This document shows, one piece after another, positions 8,586 to 17,148 of a stretch of DNA of 64,000 bases. Location: sequence record NC_014260.1, one strand, 5' to 3'. Each line of letters begins with the position of its first letter. Position 1 is the stretch's first letter. Source of the DNA: Escherichia phage IME08. The position numbers and the translations under genes are program-made. The notes below the pieces were generated by a model. That model saw only the letters and a program-made list of their open reading frames with translations, did not search any database and had not been told where the DNA came from.

Positions 8586-9257
8586 CTATAACTTATAGCA
8601 ATCGTCAAATTGAGGCCTTGTTTCTTTAATCCAATTACGAATGGTAGCTCCGGTAACATTAAAAAATTCGGCGGCGGTTTCGTATCTGTCAAATCTATAT
8701 CCTTTAATCATTATATCAACAAATACAAATTTCTTACCTTTATTAGAGTTCTCTCTAATTTTGGCTTTATGTTCTTCCGATAGTTTCCTACCTTTAAGAT
8801 GAGAATCCCTATTCTCATAAAACTTTTTATTAGCTATAGATTTGTTTTCTCGGTGCTCTTTGGATTCTTTAGAACCTGTTTTCGATTTAGACATTTTGGC
8901 CCTTACTTCCTTGGTCATACCTGCCTTGGTCTTTTCGGATAACATCTCACGATACCCAGGTTCCTGTAAAGCTACTATAACAGGATTACCCTTACCACCT
9001 AAAGCTGCATTATAAGTATCTGTTCTCATAACAAAAGCCTCGTCAACTAGTTCGGCTTCCTTAGCATACATCTCTTCAGATGTTTCGAAATTGAAAAGGA
9101 TTTCCTTTTTAAAATTCTCTAAGCCGTATTTCTTTATGGATTTTACTATGTTAACCCCGGAGCCCATATAAGAATCATTAACATCTGTAGTGGCATGGGC
9201 TCCAACATAAATCTTGTTATTAATGAGATTGGTTATTTTGTAAATTAAATAATTCAT
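8586..9257 (-). CDS. segD: GIY-YIG homing endonuclease, SegD-like (free-standing mobile gene)
   Basis: N-terminal LIYKITN...NKIYVGA GIY-YIG motif; T4 segD occupies same position between 23 and 24. Confidence 0.8.
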   Translation of the reverse strand: MNYLIYKITNLINNKIYVGAHATTDVNDSYMGSGVNIVKSIKKYGLENFKKEILFNFETSEEMYAKEAELVDEAFVMRTDTYNAALGGKGNPVIVALQEPGYREMLSEKTKAGMTKEVRAKMSKSKTGSKESKEHRENKSIANKKFYENRDSHLKGRKLSEEHKAKIRENSNKGKKFVFVDIMIKGYRFDRYETAAEFFNVTGATIRNWIKETRPQFDDCYKL

Positions 9258-9592: not shown

Positions 9593-9600
9593 TATAAATA
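9593..9600 (+). promoter_or_regulatory. Late promoter TATAAATA upstream of gp24
   Basis: Exact TATAAATA about 28 nt before ATG. Confidence 0.6.
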
Positions 9601-9628: not shown

Positions 9629-10909
9629 ATGGCAAAGATTAACGAATTACTGCGCGAGTCAACAACTACTTCTAGCAACTCATTGGGTCGCCCTAATCTT
9701 GTTGCTTTGACCCGTGCTACAACCAAATTGATTTACCGTGATATTATTGCTGAACAACGTACTAGCCAGCCTATTGCTGCATTGTATGGTGTCAAATATC
9801 TTACCCCTGATAATGAATTCAGTTTCCAAACTGGTGCTGTTTATGGCGGTGAAGTTGGTTCTAAAGACCGTGAAACTATCCCAGAACTCACAGATAAGGC
9901 CCAGGCGATTGCCAAGGGTGAATATTTCAAGTATCAGAATATTGTTTATAAGGCTCTTCAAGCAAGCCCACTCGCATCCACTAGCGCTACAGAATTGGCT
10001 GATGCCCTTCAAGAAGGTTTGGTGTCATTAACATGTCGTCTGGTTCCTGATGCGGCTCACACAGAGAAATTCGAAGCAGGTGATGTTGAAATTAGCAATG
10101 CAGTATTCCAGGTTAATAAATGGAACGCACCTGTTAAGTCTCGTAAACTTAAAACCGCTTTGACTGTAGAACTAGCCCAAGACATGGAATCCAATGGCTT
10201 CGACGCCCCTGCATTCTTAGAAGACCTCCTGGCTACAGTAATGGCAGATGAAATTAATAAAGACGTTCTGCAGTCTCTAATAACTGTATCTAAACGCTAT
10301 AAAGTTACCGGTGTATCTGATAACGGTATTGTCGATTTGTCTTATGACAGTGCTCCGGAATCTGCACGTAAACTTTATGAAATGGTTTGTGAGATGAATT
10401 CTGAAATTCAGAAAACCACTTCTTATTCAGGTACGTTTGTTGTCGCATCTAGTCGTGTAGCTGCAATGCTTGCTGGTTCAGGTTGGTTGAAACATAAACC
10501 AGAAGATGAAGCTTGGCTCCCAGAAACCGCTTATGGTTATTTGATTAACGGATTGCCTGTATTCTGTGATGTTAATAGTCCTTTAGATTATGTTATCGTG
10601 GGCGTTAAAGAAGATTACGGCGGTAATGAAGTGGTTGGTTCTATTTTCTATGCTCCGTATACCGAAGGTCTGGATTTAGACGACCAAGAACATGTTGGTG
10701 CCTATAAAGTTATTGTAGACCCTGATAGTTTGCAACCGGCTATTTCTCTGATGGTTCGTTATGCACTTTCAGCAAACCCATATACCGTTGCTAAAGATGA
10801 TAAAGAAGCTCGTGTTATAGACGCAACTAATATGGATTTAATGGCAGGGCAGAGTAACATGTCTTATCTGCTTGGTGTTAAACTTCCTCCAATTATTTAC
10901 GAGGCATAA
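9629..10909 (+). CDS. 24: Head vertex protein gp24
   Basis: 426 aa; close to recalled T4 gp24 (MAKINELLRESTTT...). Confidence 0.95.
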   Translation: MAKINELLRESTTTSSNSLGRPNLVALTRATTKLIYRDIIAEQRTSQPIAALYGVKYLTPDNEFSFQTGAVYGGEVGSKDRETIPELTDKAQAIAKGEYFKYQNIVYKALQASPLASTSATELADALQEGLVSLTCRLVPDAAHTEKFEAGDVEISNAVFQVNKWNAPVKSRKLKTALTVELAQDMESNGFDAPAFLEDLLATVMADEINKDVLQSLITVSKRYKVTGVSDNGIVDLSYDSAPESARKLYEMVCEMNSEIQKTTSYSGTFVVASSRVAAMLAGSGWLKHKPEDEAWLPETAYGYLINGLPVFCDVNSPLDYVIVGVKEDYGGNEVVGSIFYAPYTEGLDLDDQEHVGAYKVIVDPDSLQPAISLMVRYALSANPYTVAKDDKEARVIDATNMDLMAGQSNMSYLLGVKLPPIIYEA

Positions 10910-12193
10910 ATGAAAAAGATTAATGCATTAATACAAGAATCAACTTTGACGGCGGCCAACCAGGTCGCCCGTCCTAATCTTCTTTCATATACCCAGGCAA
11001 CTAATAAAAGAATTTTTAAAGCCCTTGTTGCTGAACAAAAAACTACTCAACCTGTTGCAGCATTATATGGTGTCCGTGTTTTAAACCCAGACGATAAAAT
11101 GACTTATCTCGGCGGAGCCACTTTTGCAGGCGAAATTGGTATGTTCGAACGTAAAAACATTCCTGAATTCACCGATAAAGACGAAGCATATGCTGTTGGT
11201 GATATGTTCCAATTCGAAAGTGTGGTTTTCAAGGTATTAGAAGCTTCTCCGTTTGCAGGAACAACTGAAACCGATTTGGGCGAAGTTATTTCAGAAGCTA
11301 TTGCCGCAGGCCATATTCGTATGATGTCTGATGCAGCCTTTACCAATAAATTTGAAAAAGGCCATCCTGAGATTGCTGAAGCAGGATTCCGTATTGATAA
11401 GTGGCAGACTGAAGTTAAATCGCGTAAACTTAAAACTTCTTTGACTGTAGAACTGGCCCAGGATTTAGAATCCAACGGGTTTAATGCACCAGACTTTATA
11501 GACAATATTTTGGCTATTCAAATGGCCGAAGAAATTAATAAAGACGTATTACAGTCCTTAATTACGGTAAGTTCTCGTTTTAAAGTCCAAGGAGTTTCCG
11601 AGAAAGGCGTCTTGAACTTAACAGACCCACAATATGATAACGCCCAAGACCGAGCGCGTACCTTGTATTACTATATGTGTGAAATGAATTCTGCTGTTCA
11701 ACGCCAGACTTCGTTTGCAGGTACTTATGCAGTAGCTTCTTCTCGTTGCGCCGCTATTTTAGCTGCATCCGGTTGGGTTGAGAAAAAAGAAGACCAAGAC
11801 GAATTAGCTTATGGCATATTAAAGAACGGTCTACCACTTTATGCTGATATGAATAGTCCGTGTGATTATGTTATTGTCGGTGTAAATGCTCAGATGGGTG
11901 AAGGGCAGACGGTCGCATCTTTGTATTATGCGCCTTATACGGAAGGGCTCGAAGAAGTTGATGATGAAGGTGATACTTCAGTAGGTGAATTCAAGGTTAT
12001 TGTAGACCCAGATTCATTGCAACCTACCATATCTTTATTGGCTCGGTATGCATTGACTGCGAATCCTTATACCGTCGCTAAAGACGACAAAGAAGCTCGT
12101 ATTATTGACGGTGCGGATATGGACAAAATGGCTAATCAAAGTCAATTGAGTTCTTATCTTGGTGTTAAACTTCCTCCACTTGAAAAAAGCTAA
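10910..12193 (+). CDS. gp24 paralog (second vertex-protein-like gene, diverged)
   Basis: 427 aa colinear with gp24 along full length but substantially diverged; start ATG directly follows gp24 stop. Confidence 0.9.
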   Translation: MKKINALIQESTLTAANQVARPNLLSYTQATNKRIFKALVAEQKTTQPVAALYGVRVLNPDDKMTYLGGATFAGEIGMFERKNIPEFTDKDEAYAVGDMFQFESVVFKVLEASPFAGTTETDLGEVISEAIAAGHIRMMSDAAFTNKFEKGHPEIAEAGFRIDKWQTEVKSRKLKTSLTVELAQDLESNGFNAPDFIDNILAIQMAEEINKDVLQSLITVSSRFKVQGVSEKGVLNLTDPQYDNAQDRARTLYYYMCEMNSAVQRQTSFAGTYAVASSRCAAILAASGWVEKKEDQDELAYGILKNGLPLYADMNSPCDYVIVGVNAQMGEGQTVASLYYAPYTEGLEEVDDEGDTSVGEFKVIVDPDSLQPTISLLARYALTANPYTVAKDDKEARIIDGADMDKMANQSQLSSYLGVKLPPLEKS

Positions 12194-12205
12194 TAGGAGA
12201 AATAT

Positions 12206-12412
12206 ATGGTAGATGAAACCCTGTTTGGTCATGACGGAAGAGGCAACTTTAGTGGCAAATCCTTAATTCAGCCAGAAGAGTCTATTATAATTCCGTTTTC
12301 GAACATCAGAATTTCTACAGAAAAGATAAAGTTAAATGAAGTTGAAGTTAACAATTTAGCAAAAAGTATTTTAGAATCAACAACCCAAGAAGAGGTTCAT
12401 AGTGTGTTTTAG
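12206..12412 (+). CDS. Small ORF A (68 aa) with N-terminal LFGHDGRG motif; probable N-terminal segment of the collagen-like protein
   Basis: ATG with AGGAG RBS; ends at TAG 12410-12412 three codons after the collagen-like frame opens. Confidence 0.5.
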
Positions 12413-13602
12413 GAATAAACAATTCCCAGATAGAGCCAATAGAGGGTCCGCCGGGCCCTCAAGGAGACCCGGGCCCACAAGGTATTCAAGGCCCGCCCGG
12501 CCCTCAAGGAGACCAAGGTCCACAAGGTATTCAAGGCCTTAAAGGAGATAAAGGAGATACAGGTCCACAAGGTATTCAGGGCCTACAAGGACCCAAAGGA
12601 CCTAAAGGAGACCAGGGTCCACAAGGCATTCAAGGGCCTATAGGTCCTATAGGTCCCGCAGGGCTAATATGGAAAGGAGAATGGGATGTAGATACACTTT
12701 ACTCTGTCGATGATGCTGTTGGATATGCAGGTGCATCATATTTTTGTATAGCCGAAAATACCGGTAATATACCCACAGAATCGCCGGAAAACTGGGCCTT
12801 ATTAGCATCGCAAGGAGCTAGAGGAGAATCAGGGGCCCAGGGCCTACAAGGACCCAAAGGGGATAAAGGAGATACGGGTCTTCAAGGTATTCAAGGACCC
12901 AAAGGGGATAAAGGAGATACAGGTCTTCAAGGACCTATAGGGCCTATAGGACCTAAAGGAGACCAGGGTCCTCAAGGTTCTAGAGGTATTCAAGGTATTC
13001 AAGGTCCCCAAGGAGACCAGGGCCCACAAGGTTCTAGAGGTATTCAAGGTATTCAAGGACCTCAAGGAGACCAAGGTCCGCAAGGCCTTCAAGGACCCCA
13101 AGGAGATAAAGGAGAGGATGGATTCGGAATTGATTCTAAAATAAGTGGGGTATATAAAATTCCTGCATCCGGAACCAAAGGACAATTTTATATAAACTTA
13201 CCTGGGGCAGGTGGTCTTAGATTGATTGTATCAACGGCTGGGACAGGTAATGCTGTTAAAATAGGATACGGAGGTAACTCTAGCACTGTTCAAAGAACAT
13301 TTACTATAGGATATAATTTAACAGCTAATTATACCGATTTGGCAAAAATAAAAACCGGTAGGATAAATTATACAGGGTATACTTCGGTTTCATATAGTAG
13401 CGATACAACGGCTCTAGTCGGATATGGGGATATGTATACAGCAATAGCCTCTAATAAAGATACTTTAGATTCATGGCATATAGTAATATCAGGCGTAGTG
13501 GCAAAATCATCTGCTTCGGCCACTGATGGAAGATTACTTATATCTGTAACTAAAGTTTTTGATTCCGAAACTCAACAGATTCAAACAGGTGAAATATATT
13601 AA
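12403..13602 (+). CDS. Collagen-like fibre protein (two Gly-X-Y blocks, CBM5/12-like linker, C-terminal globular domain); no canonical start codon
   Basis: Continuous open frame of about 400 codons; 24 and 34 Gly-X-Y triplets; first ATG/GTG/TTG in frame is TTG at 13222. Confidence 0.75.
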
Positions 13603-13608
13603 AACATA

Positions 13609-13626
13609 AAGGGCCGCAAGGCCCTT
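13609..13626. terminator. Bidirectional hairpin terminator between collagen-like gene and rnlB
   Basis: AAGGGCC-GCAA-GGCCCTT perfect stem between convergent genes. Confidence 0.6.
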
Positions 13627-13631
13627 ATCAT

Positions 13632-14639
13632 TTATTTGGATACTAGTTCAATCCAAACATGTCTTAATGTTTCTTTTACACACTCAATGAGCTGCTTTTT
13701 AACTTCAACAGGATTTTCAGCGTCAGTTAATTCTAATTCTTCACGGGCAGCTTCTTCAAGGATATCTTGGACCGTCAAGCCCATTACCTTTCCAAAATCC
13801 TTTTTGGAAACTTCGCCAATCTTACTGATAACATTGTTAATACGGTTAACAGTCACATAATCAGTGAATTGCCACATCAAATCCATATCGTCTTGGGATA
13901 AAACTACCGCAGCCTTAATAGGCTTATCAGACTTTTTCTTCTCGCTGAATTTAGAGTTCTTACATTTAATCGCTACACGATTTCCGTTTGGAAGCCAGGT
14001 AGGAATATCAGGTTTAAGTACAAAGCCTTCAGCCGTGAATACTTTACCTTCTACCTTAGGAATAAAGTCTGTAGAGTTTGCAATAGTTAGGCCGGCGTTA
14101 TCCACCGCAAAATTATAATCAGGAATAACTGAATCAAAGTCATTAGGTAATTTAATAAGGTCTTCAAAGCTACCTGTAGCCAGACATGGGGCTACCTTAA
14201 ACTTATGGATAATACAGAAGGCTTCCATCAATGTATCGGTTAGAACAGATTCTGAACCGTCTTCCTTAGTAACTCGGATATCGAACACATAAAAGTCTTT
14301 ATCACCGTAGTCCACATTCTTCTGGATACCTGGTCCAGCGAATTCGCCATAAATCTGGTACGACTGATAATTAATCGATTCAATTAGATGTTGAACAGAT
14401 TTAATAGAATCAGCATAGTTCTTAAGTACAATTTCATAACCATAGAAATCTTCAGCAGGGAGGATAGGGCCAGTGCGCTTGGCGCATGTGACTGCGTCAC
14501 GTTCTATGATTAAACTAAAGTTGGTCCCGTGAATCTTCTCACGTGCAACCCATTCACCACCAGTCAAACCGTTGATACGGAGTTTTTCGATAAACTTACT
14601 GTTGTAGTGGTTTTCGAGACTGCTATATTTCTTGAACAT
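13632..14639 (-). CDS. rnlB: RNA ligase 2 (RnlB, gp24.1)
   Basis: 335 aa; matches recalled T4 Rnl2 N-terminus [16 protein letters not shown] and KIHGTN nucleotidyltransferase motif. Confidence 0.93.
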
Positions 14640-14753
14640 AAATCACCATAATAAATATAATTAAATAGAAGAGCTAGTATTCTTCTGTCACCAAGCCAAA
14701 TGGTTTAACGGAAGGACCTAGACCCATTATAACACATCTAAATTTAAAGCATA

Positions 14754-14963
14754 TTACTTTGAACTAGAACGCGCTTTGCGCCGAACCTTGTTGTTCAATC
14801 TTTTACGATAGACAATCTTTTCTTTCGCTTTAAATTTGGCCTTAGCATTCTCAACTTCGGTCCAAGCTTTAGCCATATCTCTGGCGGTTCCGCCAATCTT
14901 TTTAGCAATATCAATAAAATTCATACCCGATTCATGTAAAAAATGTACTTTAATCTTATCCAT
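14754..14963 (-). CDS. Small basic protein (24.2/24.3-like), possible DNA-binding
   Basis: 69 aa ORF preceded by early promoter; lysine/arginine-rich C-terminus. Confidence 0.5.
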   Translation of the reverse strand: MDKIKVHFLHESGMNFIDIAKKIGGTARDMAKAWTEVENAKAKFKAKEKIVYRKRLNNKVRRKARSSSK

Positions 14964-14991
14964 AACAATTCTCTTGTGATTTGACTATTCA

Positions 14992-15021
14992 ATAATAACA
15001 TGAGAATTTTAACTTGTAAAC
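14992..15021 (-). promoter_or_regulatory. Early promoter GTTTAC-N18-TATTAT
   Basis: Minus strand GTTTACAAGTTAAAATTCTCATGTTATTAT. Confidence 0.5.
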
Positions 15022-15031
15022 AGGAGATTTT

Positions 15032-15106
15032 ATGCCAGACAATCCATTATACGGGCATGACGGTAGAGGTGTATCATTAGAACTCACTAGTGAAAGCACC
15101 TTTTAA
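15032..15106 (+). CDS. Mini-ORF B (24 aa) sharing the LYGHDGRG N-terminal motif with ORF A
   Basis: ATG with CAGGAGA RBS; MPDNPLYGHDGRG...; two in-frame stops before the Hoc-like ATG. Confidence 0.35.
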   Translation: MPDNPLYGHDGRGVSLELTSESTF

Positions 15107-15115
15107 GGAGGTTAA

Positions 15116-15982
15116 ATGATTGCACTTAAAATAAATGGTCCTAGATATGAATTGGTTGGTAAGACTGTAACGTTGTATACCGCATTTGTATTACCAGCAG
15201 GTTTGACTCTAGATGATATAGAAATTAATTGGTATAAAAATAATGTCCATGTCCCACAACTTCCTATTGAAGACCCTTTTGAATTGAATTTATGGGATGT
15301 TGGATATCCGGCGGCAGGAACATTTTATGCAACTATAACAAACAAGAAAAGTGGTGAAATAACAAAGAGTAATGAAATAGAACTTGAAATAGGTGTCATT
15401 CCAAGAAGAGTAATCCTGGATATAAGCTCTAGGGAATTAATATATGCCGATATAGGAGAAACCGTTTCACTTCGCCCGTCGTGTAGAGTAGAACCTACTT
15501 ATGCCGTACGTGATTGTAGATGGTATAGAAATGGAGTAGAATTATCTAACGATGAAGATATTGATATAACAATAGATAGTTCTGATAAATTCGGTACATA
15601 CATGTTGAAATCTATAGCGACCTGCGAAGGAGCGTATATCCCTGCTTCTGAAGAACTTTTAGTTGAAATAAAACCTAGAGGGGGTGTATTGCAGTGCCCG
15701 TTCATATATGATAACGACCTTAATGCCTATTTACCATATGGCGGCGGAAGAAATGAATCTTATATGTGGATAGGTTGGTGGGTGTGGGACGAAATAAGAG
15801 AAGCCGTTAGATTAGGAGAAGATTGGACGTTGGATATAAACAACAGCCGTTACAAGTATAAATGTGAGTTACAAAAAGTAGCCGACCTTTTGTCTAAGTA
15901 TCATGAAGTAGAGATACAAGAATCTAGAAACGGATATATTCTGGGGCGTAAAGACTTGCTTTATGTTCCGCCTGTACCATAA
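15116..15982 (+). CDS. Hoc-like capsid decoration protein paralog (two Ig-like domains plus Hoc-type C-terminal capsid-binding domain)
   Basis: C-terminus ESYMWIGWWVWDEI...EVEIQESRNGYI parallels Hoc SAYIWCGWWVMDEI...EVDVQESRNGRI; AAGGAGG RBS. Confidence 0.85.
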   Translation: MIALKINGPRYELVGKTVTLYTAFVLPAGLTLDDIEINWYKNNVHVPQLPIEDPFELNLWDVGYPAAGTFYATITNKKSGEITKSNEIELEIGVIPRRVILDISSRELIYADIGETVSLRPSCRVEPTYAVRDCRWYRNGVELSNDEDIDITIDSSDKFGTYMLKSIATCEGAYIPASEELLVEIKPRGGVLQCPFIYDNDLNAYLPYGGGRNESYMWIGWWVWDEIREAVRLGEDWTLDINNSRYKYKCELQKVADLLSKYHEVEIQESRNGYILGRKDLLYVPPVP

Positions 15983-15990
15983 AAAAATAA

Positions 15991-16012
15991 AGGGACCCGA
16001 AGGTCCCTTTTT
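15991..16012. terminator. Bidirectional terminator between Hoc-like gene and hoc
   Basis: AGGGACC-CGAA-GGTCCCT hairpin with T-run on both strands. Confidence 0.65.
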
Positions 16013-16014
16013 AA

Positions 16015-17148
16015 TTAATAAACGTAATCGTAAATAATTCCAGCATCCAAAGCGGTTCTGTGAATAATTCTACCATTACGAGATTCCTGTACATCAACCT
16101 CCGGATAGTCAGTAATCATTTTTTGAAGAGTATAACGATGGAGATAGAAATCACTATCAGGGTCATCGGTTTTCCAGTCTTTGCCTTCAAGAGTCATTTT
16201 CTGGATTTCGTCCATAACCCACCAACCACACCAGATATAAGCTGAATTGCGAACTGGTAGCGGATGAACGTAAGGTAGTTCGCCCTCTGGAACTGGTGCG
16301 ACTTTAGCCGTGACTGTTACATTACCAGTTTTGGTAACAGTCGTAGGGTTATAATCGGCGGCCGAAACAACAGCAGAAACTTCAATAACCTGTGAACCTT
16401 CAGCGCTTGTGTCAATTACTAATGTATCTGTAGCACCCACAACAGGTGAACCGTCTTTCTTCCAAGAATAAGCAAAAGTGGCACCACTAGGCGCACCTGC
16501 TACGGTAGCTTTAAAAGAAGCCGGAGTTCCTTCAGGTACATTAATAGAGGCTGGCGTTAAATTAACAGAAACCCCAGACATTGTTTTCTTAACAAAAGAA
16601 ACCGTTACGCCTTTAGCAGCAGTTGCTGAACCGTATTCCGGAGAGGTAACAGTAACTTCACAATTCAAGGTATAATTTGCTTCGGCTGCTTCAGTTAGTG
16701 TAATAGTTTTAGAGGTTTGGCCTGAAATTACGGTGGTATTTCGTTTCCAAACATAATTAATTGTTGCACCAGCAGGAGCACCGGTTACATTAGCCGTAAC
16801 AACTTGGGATTGGCCGACTTCTTTAGAAACGGAAGTAGGGTCCAAAGCCAAAGAGATATCCATAGTTTTATTAGATACAGTAACTTCAAAGGTGTCTTCG
16901 GCTGTCTCAAGAGGACCCGCATCGCCAGGGTCAGAAGTTACTACTACTTTTATAACTTTCTTACCCGCAGGAGCAGCACCCGTATATCTCAAAACATTAG
17001 TGGTTTCTGGGTTAGCAGCTCCATCAACGGTCCATACATATGCAATGGTTCCACCTGTTACAACTGCGTCGGTTGCGGTAGCAGTGTAGTTAGCGCTTTC
17101 GCCTATTTTCATAGACGCTGCGCCGGCTATACTTACAGTAAAGGCCAT
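16015..17148 (-). CDS. hoc: Highly immunogenic outer capsid protein Hoc
   Basis: 377 aa; near-identical to recalled T4 Hoc C-terminal half (LPYVHPLP...YIWCGWWVMDEIQKMT). Confidence 0.92.
   Translation of the reverse strand: MAFTVSIAGAASMKIGESANYTATATDAVVTGGTIAYVWTVDGAANPETTNVLRYTGAAPAGKKVIKVVVTSDPGDAGPLETAEDTFEVTVSNKTMDISLALDPTSVSKEVGQSQVVTANVTGAPAGATINYVWKRNTTVISGQTSKTITLTEAAEANYTLNCEVTVTSPEYGSATAAKGVTVSFVKKTMSGVSVNLTPASINVPEGTPASFKATVAGAPSGATFAYSWKKDGSPVVGATDTLVIDTSAEGSQVIEVSAVVSAADYNPTTVTKTGNVTVTAKVAPVPEGELPYVHPLPVRNSAYIWCGWWVMDEIQKMTLEGKDWKTDDPDSDFYLHRYTLQKMITDYPEVDVQESRNGRIIHRTALDAGIIYDYVY

Follow-up and report, generated by a model that had tools for sequence, protein, structure and literature searches.

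In the 64,000-nucleotide (nt) stretch of the Escherichia phage IME08 genome analyzed here (record NC_014260.1; hereafter the window), a short open reading frame (ORF A) and the collagen-like frame that follows it at 12206-13602 are, by homology, the two halves of one accessory fibre gene broken by a one-base lesion. ORF A is, on the same evidence, the conserved N-terminal domain of the collagen-like "tail fiber" proteins (PHROG 5073) of T4-like phages. The original prediction, which was made from the letters of the window, had left three explanations side by side, namely expression by recoding, a non-canonical start codon, or a split caused by an indel. Comparison with homologues, in which the two parts form one gene and the homology crosses the break, supported the split by an indel. 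A non-canonical start was rejected, the true start being the ATG of ORF A. The case is an ordinary gene lesion in a collagen-like fibre family that is annotated in databases and experimentally uncharacterised.

The elements at the break were as follows (coordinates are those of the window).

12195-12199, plus strand: Shine-Dalgarno sequence AGGAG, 6 nt 5' of the ATG of ORF A.
12206-12412, plus strand: ORF A, the N-terminal domain of the fibre family, 68 amino acids (aa), with a profile match of 58.5 bits.
12403-12410, plus strand: frameshift window TGTGTTTT, the only stretch in which both frames are open together.
12409-12444, plus strand: last stretch of the N-terminal domain, read in the -1 frame and matching the invariant G-I (profile positions 67-77).

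ORF A consists of an ATG start, 68 codons and a TAG stop. The collagen frame opens past a TAG at 12400-12402 and spans 12403-13602, which is 400 codons including the TAA at 13600-13602; it is offset by -1 relative to ORF A, and its earliest in-frame ATG, GTG or TTG is the TTG at 13222. The adjoining of the two frames with this offset, the late first start codon and the good ribosome-binding site of ORF A had all been described in the original prediction and were seen in the sequence. Its further statement that no Shine-Dalgarno sequence precedes the collagen frame held in part: AGGA is present at 12411-12414, and no usable start codon follows it. The deposited sequence across the break reads TGTGTTTTAGG, and within 12390-12425 it contains GTGTTTTAGG. 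The TTTT run occupies 12407-12410, and the zero-frame codons at the break are GUG UUU UAG.

The identity of ORF A was revealed by comparison with the fibre family. A tblastn search with ORF A led to the N-termini of single-ORF collagen-like proteins of Erwinia phage Cronus, E. coli phage TH15, Salmonella phage ABTNLsp5, Aeromonas phage 65 and GomatiRiver_11. A profile of the N-terminal domain searched against 1.84 billion representative proteins matched 21 clusters at E<=1e-10. In about 20 of the matches the domain began within the first few residues of proteins of 155-610 aa, and the short matches (45-78 aa) were, apart from ORF A, a deletion remnant (L022) or further fragments. All aligned homologues (22/22) carried the N-terminal domain and the collagen repeats in a single ORF, unshifted at the position of the break. 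The full-length proteins follow one plan, in which about 75 residues with an invariant G-H-D-G-x-G are followed by a helical motif ending in (aromatic)-L/I-G-I and then by Gly-X-Y repeats. ORF A contains the N-terminal domain from residue 1 with the invariant G-H-x-G-x-G and F31, and the collagen repeats interrupted by a conserved W/Y-rich module of about 50 aa are also present in the window. The run of (aromatic)-L/I-G-I into Gly-X-Y within the same ORF is missing from the sequence as deposited and is restored by a one-base repair.

A test profile was then rebuilt from the 22 homologues alone, with the window sequence left out, and scored against all 1,606 stop-to-stop segments of the window. 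ORF A matched this profile with 58.5 bits (E=5e-17), covering positions 1-66 of 77, and positions 67-77 (LGI...) were encoded by the collagen frame. The fused versions reached position 77 and scored 62.6 bits with one base added and 67.7 bits with two T's removed. Because the family homology crosses the break, the ATG of ORF A is the missing start of the gene and the lesion is placed within 12403-12410.

The lesion is either the loss of one base or the gain of two within 12403-12410, and a lost base need not be a T. According to the original prediction, one extra T in the TTTT run would fuse the two frames into a protein of about 465 aa. An added T does yield the 465-aa fusion, but T is not specifically needed, since any single base inserted within 12403-12410 joins ORF A to the collagen frame, and an ORF of 464 or 465 codons results from a one-base insertion or a two-base deletion there. 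Removal of two T's also joins the frames and gives the best family-profile score among the repaired versions. The DNA of TH15 and ABTNLsp5 reads TTTATAGGAAT (TTT ATA GGA ATT) opposite TTT-TAGGAAT of the window; an inserted A would give TTT ATA GGA, encoding F-I-G as these two phages have.

The gene was found to be divergent from its relatives, with 25-38% identity between the N-terminal domain of ORF A and those of other family members. By exact look-up, ORF A was on record only as a UniParc/MetaClust entry, and there was no record of the fused protein or of the 126-aa ORF starting at the TTG. In IMG/VR, neither the exact junction pattern with a variable gap nor peptide-pattern scans with the N-terminal and C-terminal parts gave a match, and a profile scan returned Cronus and phage 65 only. 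When the 80-aa N-terminus and the C-terminal domain were compared with 5.8 billion proteins in a word-indexed search, nothing but ORF A itself was returned. Tequatrovirus (T4) records contained no match to either end of the fibre protein, which is consistent with the earlier remark that T4 is not known to have anything comparable here. By the matches obtained, the family is nevertheless widespread in other T4-like phages, beyond what the original prediction knew.

Downstream of the break, four parts of the protein were delimited.

12445-12669, plus strand: first Gly-X-Y block (24 triplets; tandem repeats of 45 nt).
12661-12813, plus strand: CBM5/12-like insert GLIWKGEWD...NWALLASQG between the collagen blocks (phrog_5073, E=1.8e-18).
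12814-13128, plus strand: second Gly-X-Y block (34 triplets; tandem repeats of 45 and 54 nt).
13111-13602, plus strand: C-terminal domain of about 160 aa plus stop codon, predicted to be all-beta and homologous to Vequintavirinae proteins.

The counts of 24 and 34 triplets agreed with those given before, each span also holding one extra G-x-x unit, and the Pfam Collagen match had an E value of 1.1e-28. The collagen blocks (12448-13113) consist of 45-nt and 54-nt tandem repeats with up to 97% matches; with reads of 73-75 nt, the deposited sequence may contain too many or too few of the repeats, and errors of this kind would stay in frame. The middle module, about 50 aa and rich in W and Y, matched phrog_5073 at positions 211-264 (E=1.8e-18). 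Its earlier designation as a CBM5/12-like linker stood at the level of the family, in which the ABTNLsp5 homologue clears the threshold of Pfam CBM_5_12 (PF02839) with 33.8 bits; here the isolated module scored 21.8 bits and the full protein 16.7 bits, both under the gathering threshold of 26.2 bits. The best sequence match of the module in PDB was the chitin-binding domain of chitinase A1 (1ED7, E=0.08).

The C-terminal domain has the length of about 160 aa claimed for it and was predicted to be all-beta in a mediocre AlphaFold model. Over about 155 aa, its identity was 36-42% with the C-terminal ends of collagen-like tail-fibre proteins from Vequintavirinae (LTH01, CR3/CR8, PBES 02 and Pectobacterium phages). 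PDB sequence matches of this domain to LHCI proteins were also obtained and were discarded, as they look like compositional noise. The model of the N-terminal domain, with a predicted template modelling (pTM) score of 0.35, was extended in its first half and formed a helical hairpin (residues 50-68) that stops exactly at the break. ORF A comprises the invariant G-H-D-G-x-G and then one helical '...AR..LGI' fibre-repeat motif cut by the frameshift. The second half of the domain (YGRxxL...AR..LGL) is one copy of a motif of about 35 aa that was also found repeated 4-12 times in large fibre-like proteins of 398-2180 aa (P0030, P0032, P0034, P0035, P0038); in a Pfam scan of P0032, P0034, P0035 and P0038 no family was matched. 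A protein of this make-up would presumably be a trimeric fibre that is displayed on the virion and binds glycans.

With limited confidence, we incline to the reading that the lesion is real and not programmed, and that it is carried by the phage and not only by the assembly. IME08 was sequenced on the Illumina GA platform at about 4,300-fold coverage, and the final sequence was derived from Velvet assemblies of 20-100x subsets of 73-75-nt reads (PMC3105952). In a comparison with IME341 covering most of the window (96-98% identity), no other ORF was broken. The isolated 1-nt differences between the two phages (22101, 28304, 38430, 43552, 52082 and 61158) were all intergenic, most of them being run-length changes (TT/TTT, GGGGG/GGGG, TTTTTT/TTTTT), and the indels in coding regions were compensated or multiples of three. 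Moreover, the fibre function appears dispensable in the IME08 lineage, because the canonical gene of the family has already been deleted from the window (15032-15106) and IME341 has neither a collagen-like gene nor the Hoc I-like gene that accompanies it.

Several observations weigh against a real lesion. The break lies about 35 nt upstream of the 45-nt tandem repeats, where de Bruijn assemblers can err. No second lesion is present in the remaining 465 codons, an observation as compatible with an artefact as with a very recent mutation. Since the phage has gained this extra copy elsewhere and lost the canonical one, the new copy could be a functional replacement, which would be expected to be intact. 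In addition, none of the collections searched yielded a close relative of the gene with which the break site could be compared.

The same observations give substance to an assembly or sequencing artefact, in which the phage gene would be intact (465 or 464 codons), the fibre full-length and the deposited sequence one base short or two over. We regard this as possible and as distinctly the less probable of the two. It would account for a single lesion in 465 codons that are otherwise open and family-like; assembly of the short tandem repeats near the break is difficult when reads measure 73-75 nt and k=27-31; and retention of the extra copy while the canonical one was deleted suggests need. On the other hand, Illumina reads at about 4,300x are not indel-prone in a run of four or five bases, the remaining ORFs of the window are unbroken relative to IME341, and the junction is unique sequence outside the repeats. 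In addition, the comparison with TH15 suggests a lost A between T's and not a homopolymer miscount. The homopolymer sequencing error raised in the original prediction is thus weakened both by the platform and depth of sequencing and by a lost base that may not be a T, although it is still a candidate.

Expression by recoding is unlikely. It would require a -1 slip of peptidyl-tRNA-Phe from UUU (12407-12409) to GUU with UAG in the A site, and the product ...V-F-L-G-I... would be made either at a low leaky level or in a regulated ratio of stump to fibre. This product does fit the family consensus (aromatic-L-G-I). P-site slippage is generally known to be favoured when the A site is occupied by a stop codon, as it would be here. 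A Shine-Dalgarno-like stretch, GAAGAGG, is found some 12 nt upstream, and the stop codon is where a 5-bp hairpin (12412-12426) begins. However, G UUU U is neither X XXY YYZ nor Z ZZN, and re-pairing on GUU is mismatched at codon position 1. The slip favoured at UUU-U is +1, into the third frame with a stop at 12542, and a gene-60-type hop to UUC at 12423 enters the same wrong frame. The hairpin is weak, and the fold of 12380-12500 was not significant (z=-1.53; 15 of 200 shuffles folded as well); the GC-rich hairpin does not start until about 33 nt downstream, with no stable structure 5-9 nt downstream. GAAGAGG merely codes for a conserved Glu-Glu, and a shift at this position was found in 0 of the 22 aligned homologues. 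The arrangement resembles programmed -1 frameshifting, as in dnaX and the tail chaperone G/GT, in its overlapping -1 ORFs and in a downstream ORF without its own start; it differs in having no slippery heptamer, no convincing stimulator and no conserved shift.

Two separate genes, with ORF A as an independent small protein and the collagen protein started from a non-canonical codon or from the TTG at 13222, are highly improbable: an AGGTGG-like stretch about 8 nt before that TTG would in principle allow a 126-aa C-terminal fragment, but such a product is without collagen repeats and anchor domain, the candidate codons near the frame opening are ATA only (12415, 12430, 12439) and none has a correctly spaced Shine-Dalgarno sequence, no homologue has a free-standing ORF A save deletion remnants, and the family domain crosses the break.

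The gene lies in the late capsid region of the window, with the following landmarks.

9593-9600, plus strand: T4-type late promoter consensus TATAAATA, upstream of gp24a.
10910-12193, plus strand: gp24b, a second capsid vertex paralogue, exact match to ADI55497.1 (IME08); its stop codon is the left insertion edge.
12194-13602, plus strand: 1.4-kb gene cassette, absent from IME341, Bp7 and WG01.
13609-13626, no strand assigned: bidirectional terminator hairpin, common to the fibre gene and the convergent rnlB.

The gene order is gp24a (9629-10909), gp24b (10910-12193), the fibre gene and, on the opposite strand, rnlB. In IME341, Bp7 and WG01, which are without the cassette, the terminator and the convergent rnlB come immediately after gp24b. 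The segment that starts at 12194 and ends at about 13602 is therefore an insertion, with the gp24b stop at its one edge and the terminator hairpin at the other. The flanks in the window are Dhakavirus-like. The nearest late-promoter consensus upstream of the fibre gene, and the only one detected there, is that at 9593, none being present directly before ORF A. With this promoter and the terminator at 13609-13626, the fibre gene rides on the late capsid transcript. Gene order and upstream promoter agree with the position in the late capsid operon, directly after gp24 and its paralogue, that had been pointed out before. The tandem gp24 paralogues (9629-12193; 426 and 427 aa) are an arrangement also found in Cronus, TH15, JS10-like phages and several metagenomic contigs. 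Just upstream of gp24a, an ORF for a GIY-YIG-type homing-endonuclease-like protein is present (8586-9257, minus strand, 223 aa, MNYLIYKITN...); its equivalent in IME341, which is flanked by gp24 and the gene for the major head protein, carries the annotation homing endonuclease.

Further downstream, traces of the canonical family gene were detected next to a second Hoc gene.

15032-15106, plus strand: 24-codon remnant MPDNPLYGHDGRGVSLELTSESTF* of the canonical family gene, from which some 1,455 nt have been deleted by comparison with Dhakavirus CLBP2.
15116-15982, plus strand: Hoc I-like second Hoc paralogue, 288 aa, with capsid-binding C-terminal motifs.

The remnant retains the Shine-Dalgarno sequence, the opening 13 codons with the start, and the final codons, and it ends 9 nt before the Hoc I-like gene. 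In CLBP2 the counterpart is a collagen-like gene encoding 501 aa (L021 3486-4991) directly upstream of the Hoc I-like gene; the Hoc I-like genes of CLBP2 and the window are 88.5% identical. By our own observation, which is not a published criterion, every intact family locus (12 of 12) had a collagen-like gene with a short second Hoc paralogue as its immediate same-strand neighbour, the loci being those of Cronus, TH15, ABTNLsp5, Aeromonas 65, GomatiRiver_11, JS10, CGG4-1, CLBP2 and four metagenomic or other contigs (L001-L005, L011, L012, L014, L015, L019-L021). The two genes were separated by at most 12 nt or overlapped by 4 nt, and the paralogue occurred alongside the usual hoc gene. The window departs from this pattern, with rnlB and a DUF2774 gene between the fibre gene and the Hoc I-like gene, and the site next to Hoc I holds only the remnant. 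IME08 has thus lost the canonical copy and carries, at a new site, a divergent, mosaic copy, which is the frameshifted gene.

The decoration region was highly variable among near-identical phages. The main hoc gene of IME341 is longer than that of the window (472 aa vs 377 aa; L008 14662-18205 vs 13632-17148). The T4-like contig L011 (7624-9993) carries two collagen and Hoc pairs, the second collagen protein (498 aa) having an rV5/CR8-type N-terminus, GVFYGYSLYDL, in place of GHDGRG. Alignment with hhalign suggests that the GHDGRG and rV5-type N-termini are distantly related (probability 66%, first half of the domain). Locus L023 (1297-2848) has a frameshift inside the second collagen block, with the remainder in another frame and a Hoc I-like gene after it, and in L022 (3001-3237), from a 254-kb phage, only a 78-aa N-terminal stump is left.

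The constant pairing of the family with a second Hoc gene suggests that the fibre may decorate the head. A place on the virion, as a capsid fibre, is also plausible from the gene context. A more specific and tentative proposal is a two-gene capsid-decoration module, in which the short Hoc paralogue, or its hexamer site, would anchor the GHDGRG domain of a CBM-bearing, trimeric collagen-like fibre; we consider this rather doubtful at present. A literature search found no paper on the fibre family or its Hoc linkage and no experimental characterisation, proteomic or structural report of any member, and a 2023 Hoc review that discusses second Hoc proteins does not mention the collagen-Hoc linkage (PMC10385173). 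In the virion proteome of CB7, a 112-kDa collagen-domain fibre was detected, which is not an orthologue of the relatives found through the C-terminal domain.

Compared with other PHROG 5073 proteins (JS10 YP_002922525.1, Cronus AWD90325.1, Aeromonas phage 65 ST65p147, ABTNLsp5 QPI13310.1), the IME08 gene agrees in its N-terminal GHDGRG domain, which likewise closes with LGI, in having the CBM5/12-like module between two collagen stretches, in a C-terminal tip of the kind that varies among members, and in its position in the region of gene 24, rnlB and hoc. Differently from these, it is split by a frameshift, stands after gp24b and not adjoining the Hoc I-like gene, and has a tip otherwise seen in Vequintavirinae. 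The rV5-like Vequintavirinae proteins (CR8 gp011, LTH01 WWT49286.1, P7_Pc orf011) have the same architecture and a homologous C-terminal domain, whereas their N-terminus (GVYFGYxLYDL) is without the GHDGRG and helical LGI motifs. Their genes lie in a tail-fibre cluster, and the annotated flanks in LTH01 and CR8 contain no Hoc-like gene.

A close parallel for the lesion itself is stf (side tail fibre) of laboratory phage lambda. Hendrix and Duda are said to have shown in 1992, by comparison with Ur-lambda, that lambda PaPa has stf split by a frameshift. As appears to be the case in IME08, a dispensable fibre gene with a single-base frameshift had first been taken as two genes; the protein family is another one, and Ur-lambda served there as the comparator, whereas no intact close relative was found here. 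For a position on the head, gp12 of SPP1, a collagen-like trimeric capsid decoration at hexamer centres (PMC7602432), is a precedent, being a collagen-like phage protein on the head. By description, not by sequence comparison, gp12 differs from the IME08 fibre in being small and in having no CBM-like or C-terminal tip domain.

Taken together, 12206-13602 forms a single accessory gene, expressed late, whose product is a modular and presumably trimeric fibre. In it, an N-terminal attachment domain of about 78 aa is followed by collagen, the CBM5/12-like module, collagen and a C-terminal beta-domain tip, the anchor being lineage-specific and the tip exchangeable. A single-base frameshift at 12403-12410, in the last helix of the N-terminal domain, would cause translation from the ATG of ORF A to end at the TAG at 12410. 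If the lesion is real, a 68-aa stump and little or no full-length fibre would be produced, and the gene would be a young pseudogene of a dispensable decoration or adhesin.

These results call for two corrections of annotation: 12206-13602 is one frameshifted fibre gene, not a small ORF with unannotated DNA, and 15032-15106 is the deletion remnant of its canonical paralogue. A candidate recoding site is at the same time dropped from consideration. The "tail fiber" label of the family in databases rests purely on the collagen repeats. If the two-gene module exists, T4-like phages would possess exchangeable head fibres, and IME08 would exhibit their turnover, with the canonical gene deleted and a mosaic replacement bearing a Vequintavirinae-type tip inserted after gp24b and at present frameshifted. 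If the fibre does decorate the head, the family would represent a swappable capsid adhesin fibre in T4-like phages, with relevance to adherence to mucus and glycans and to phage display.

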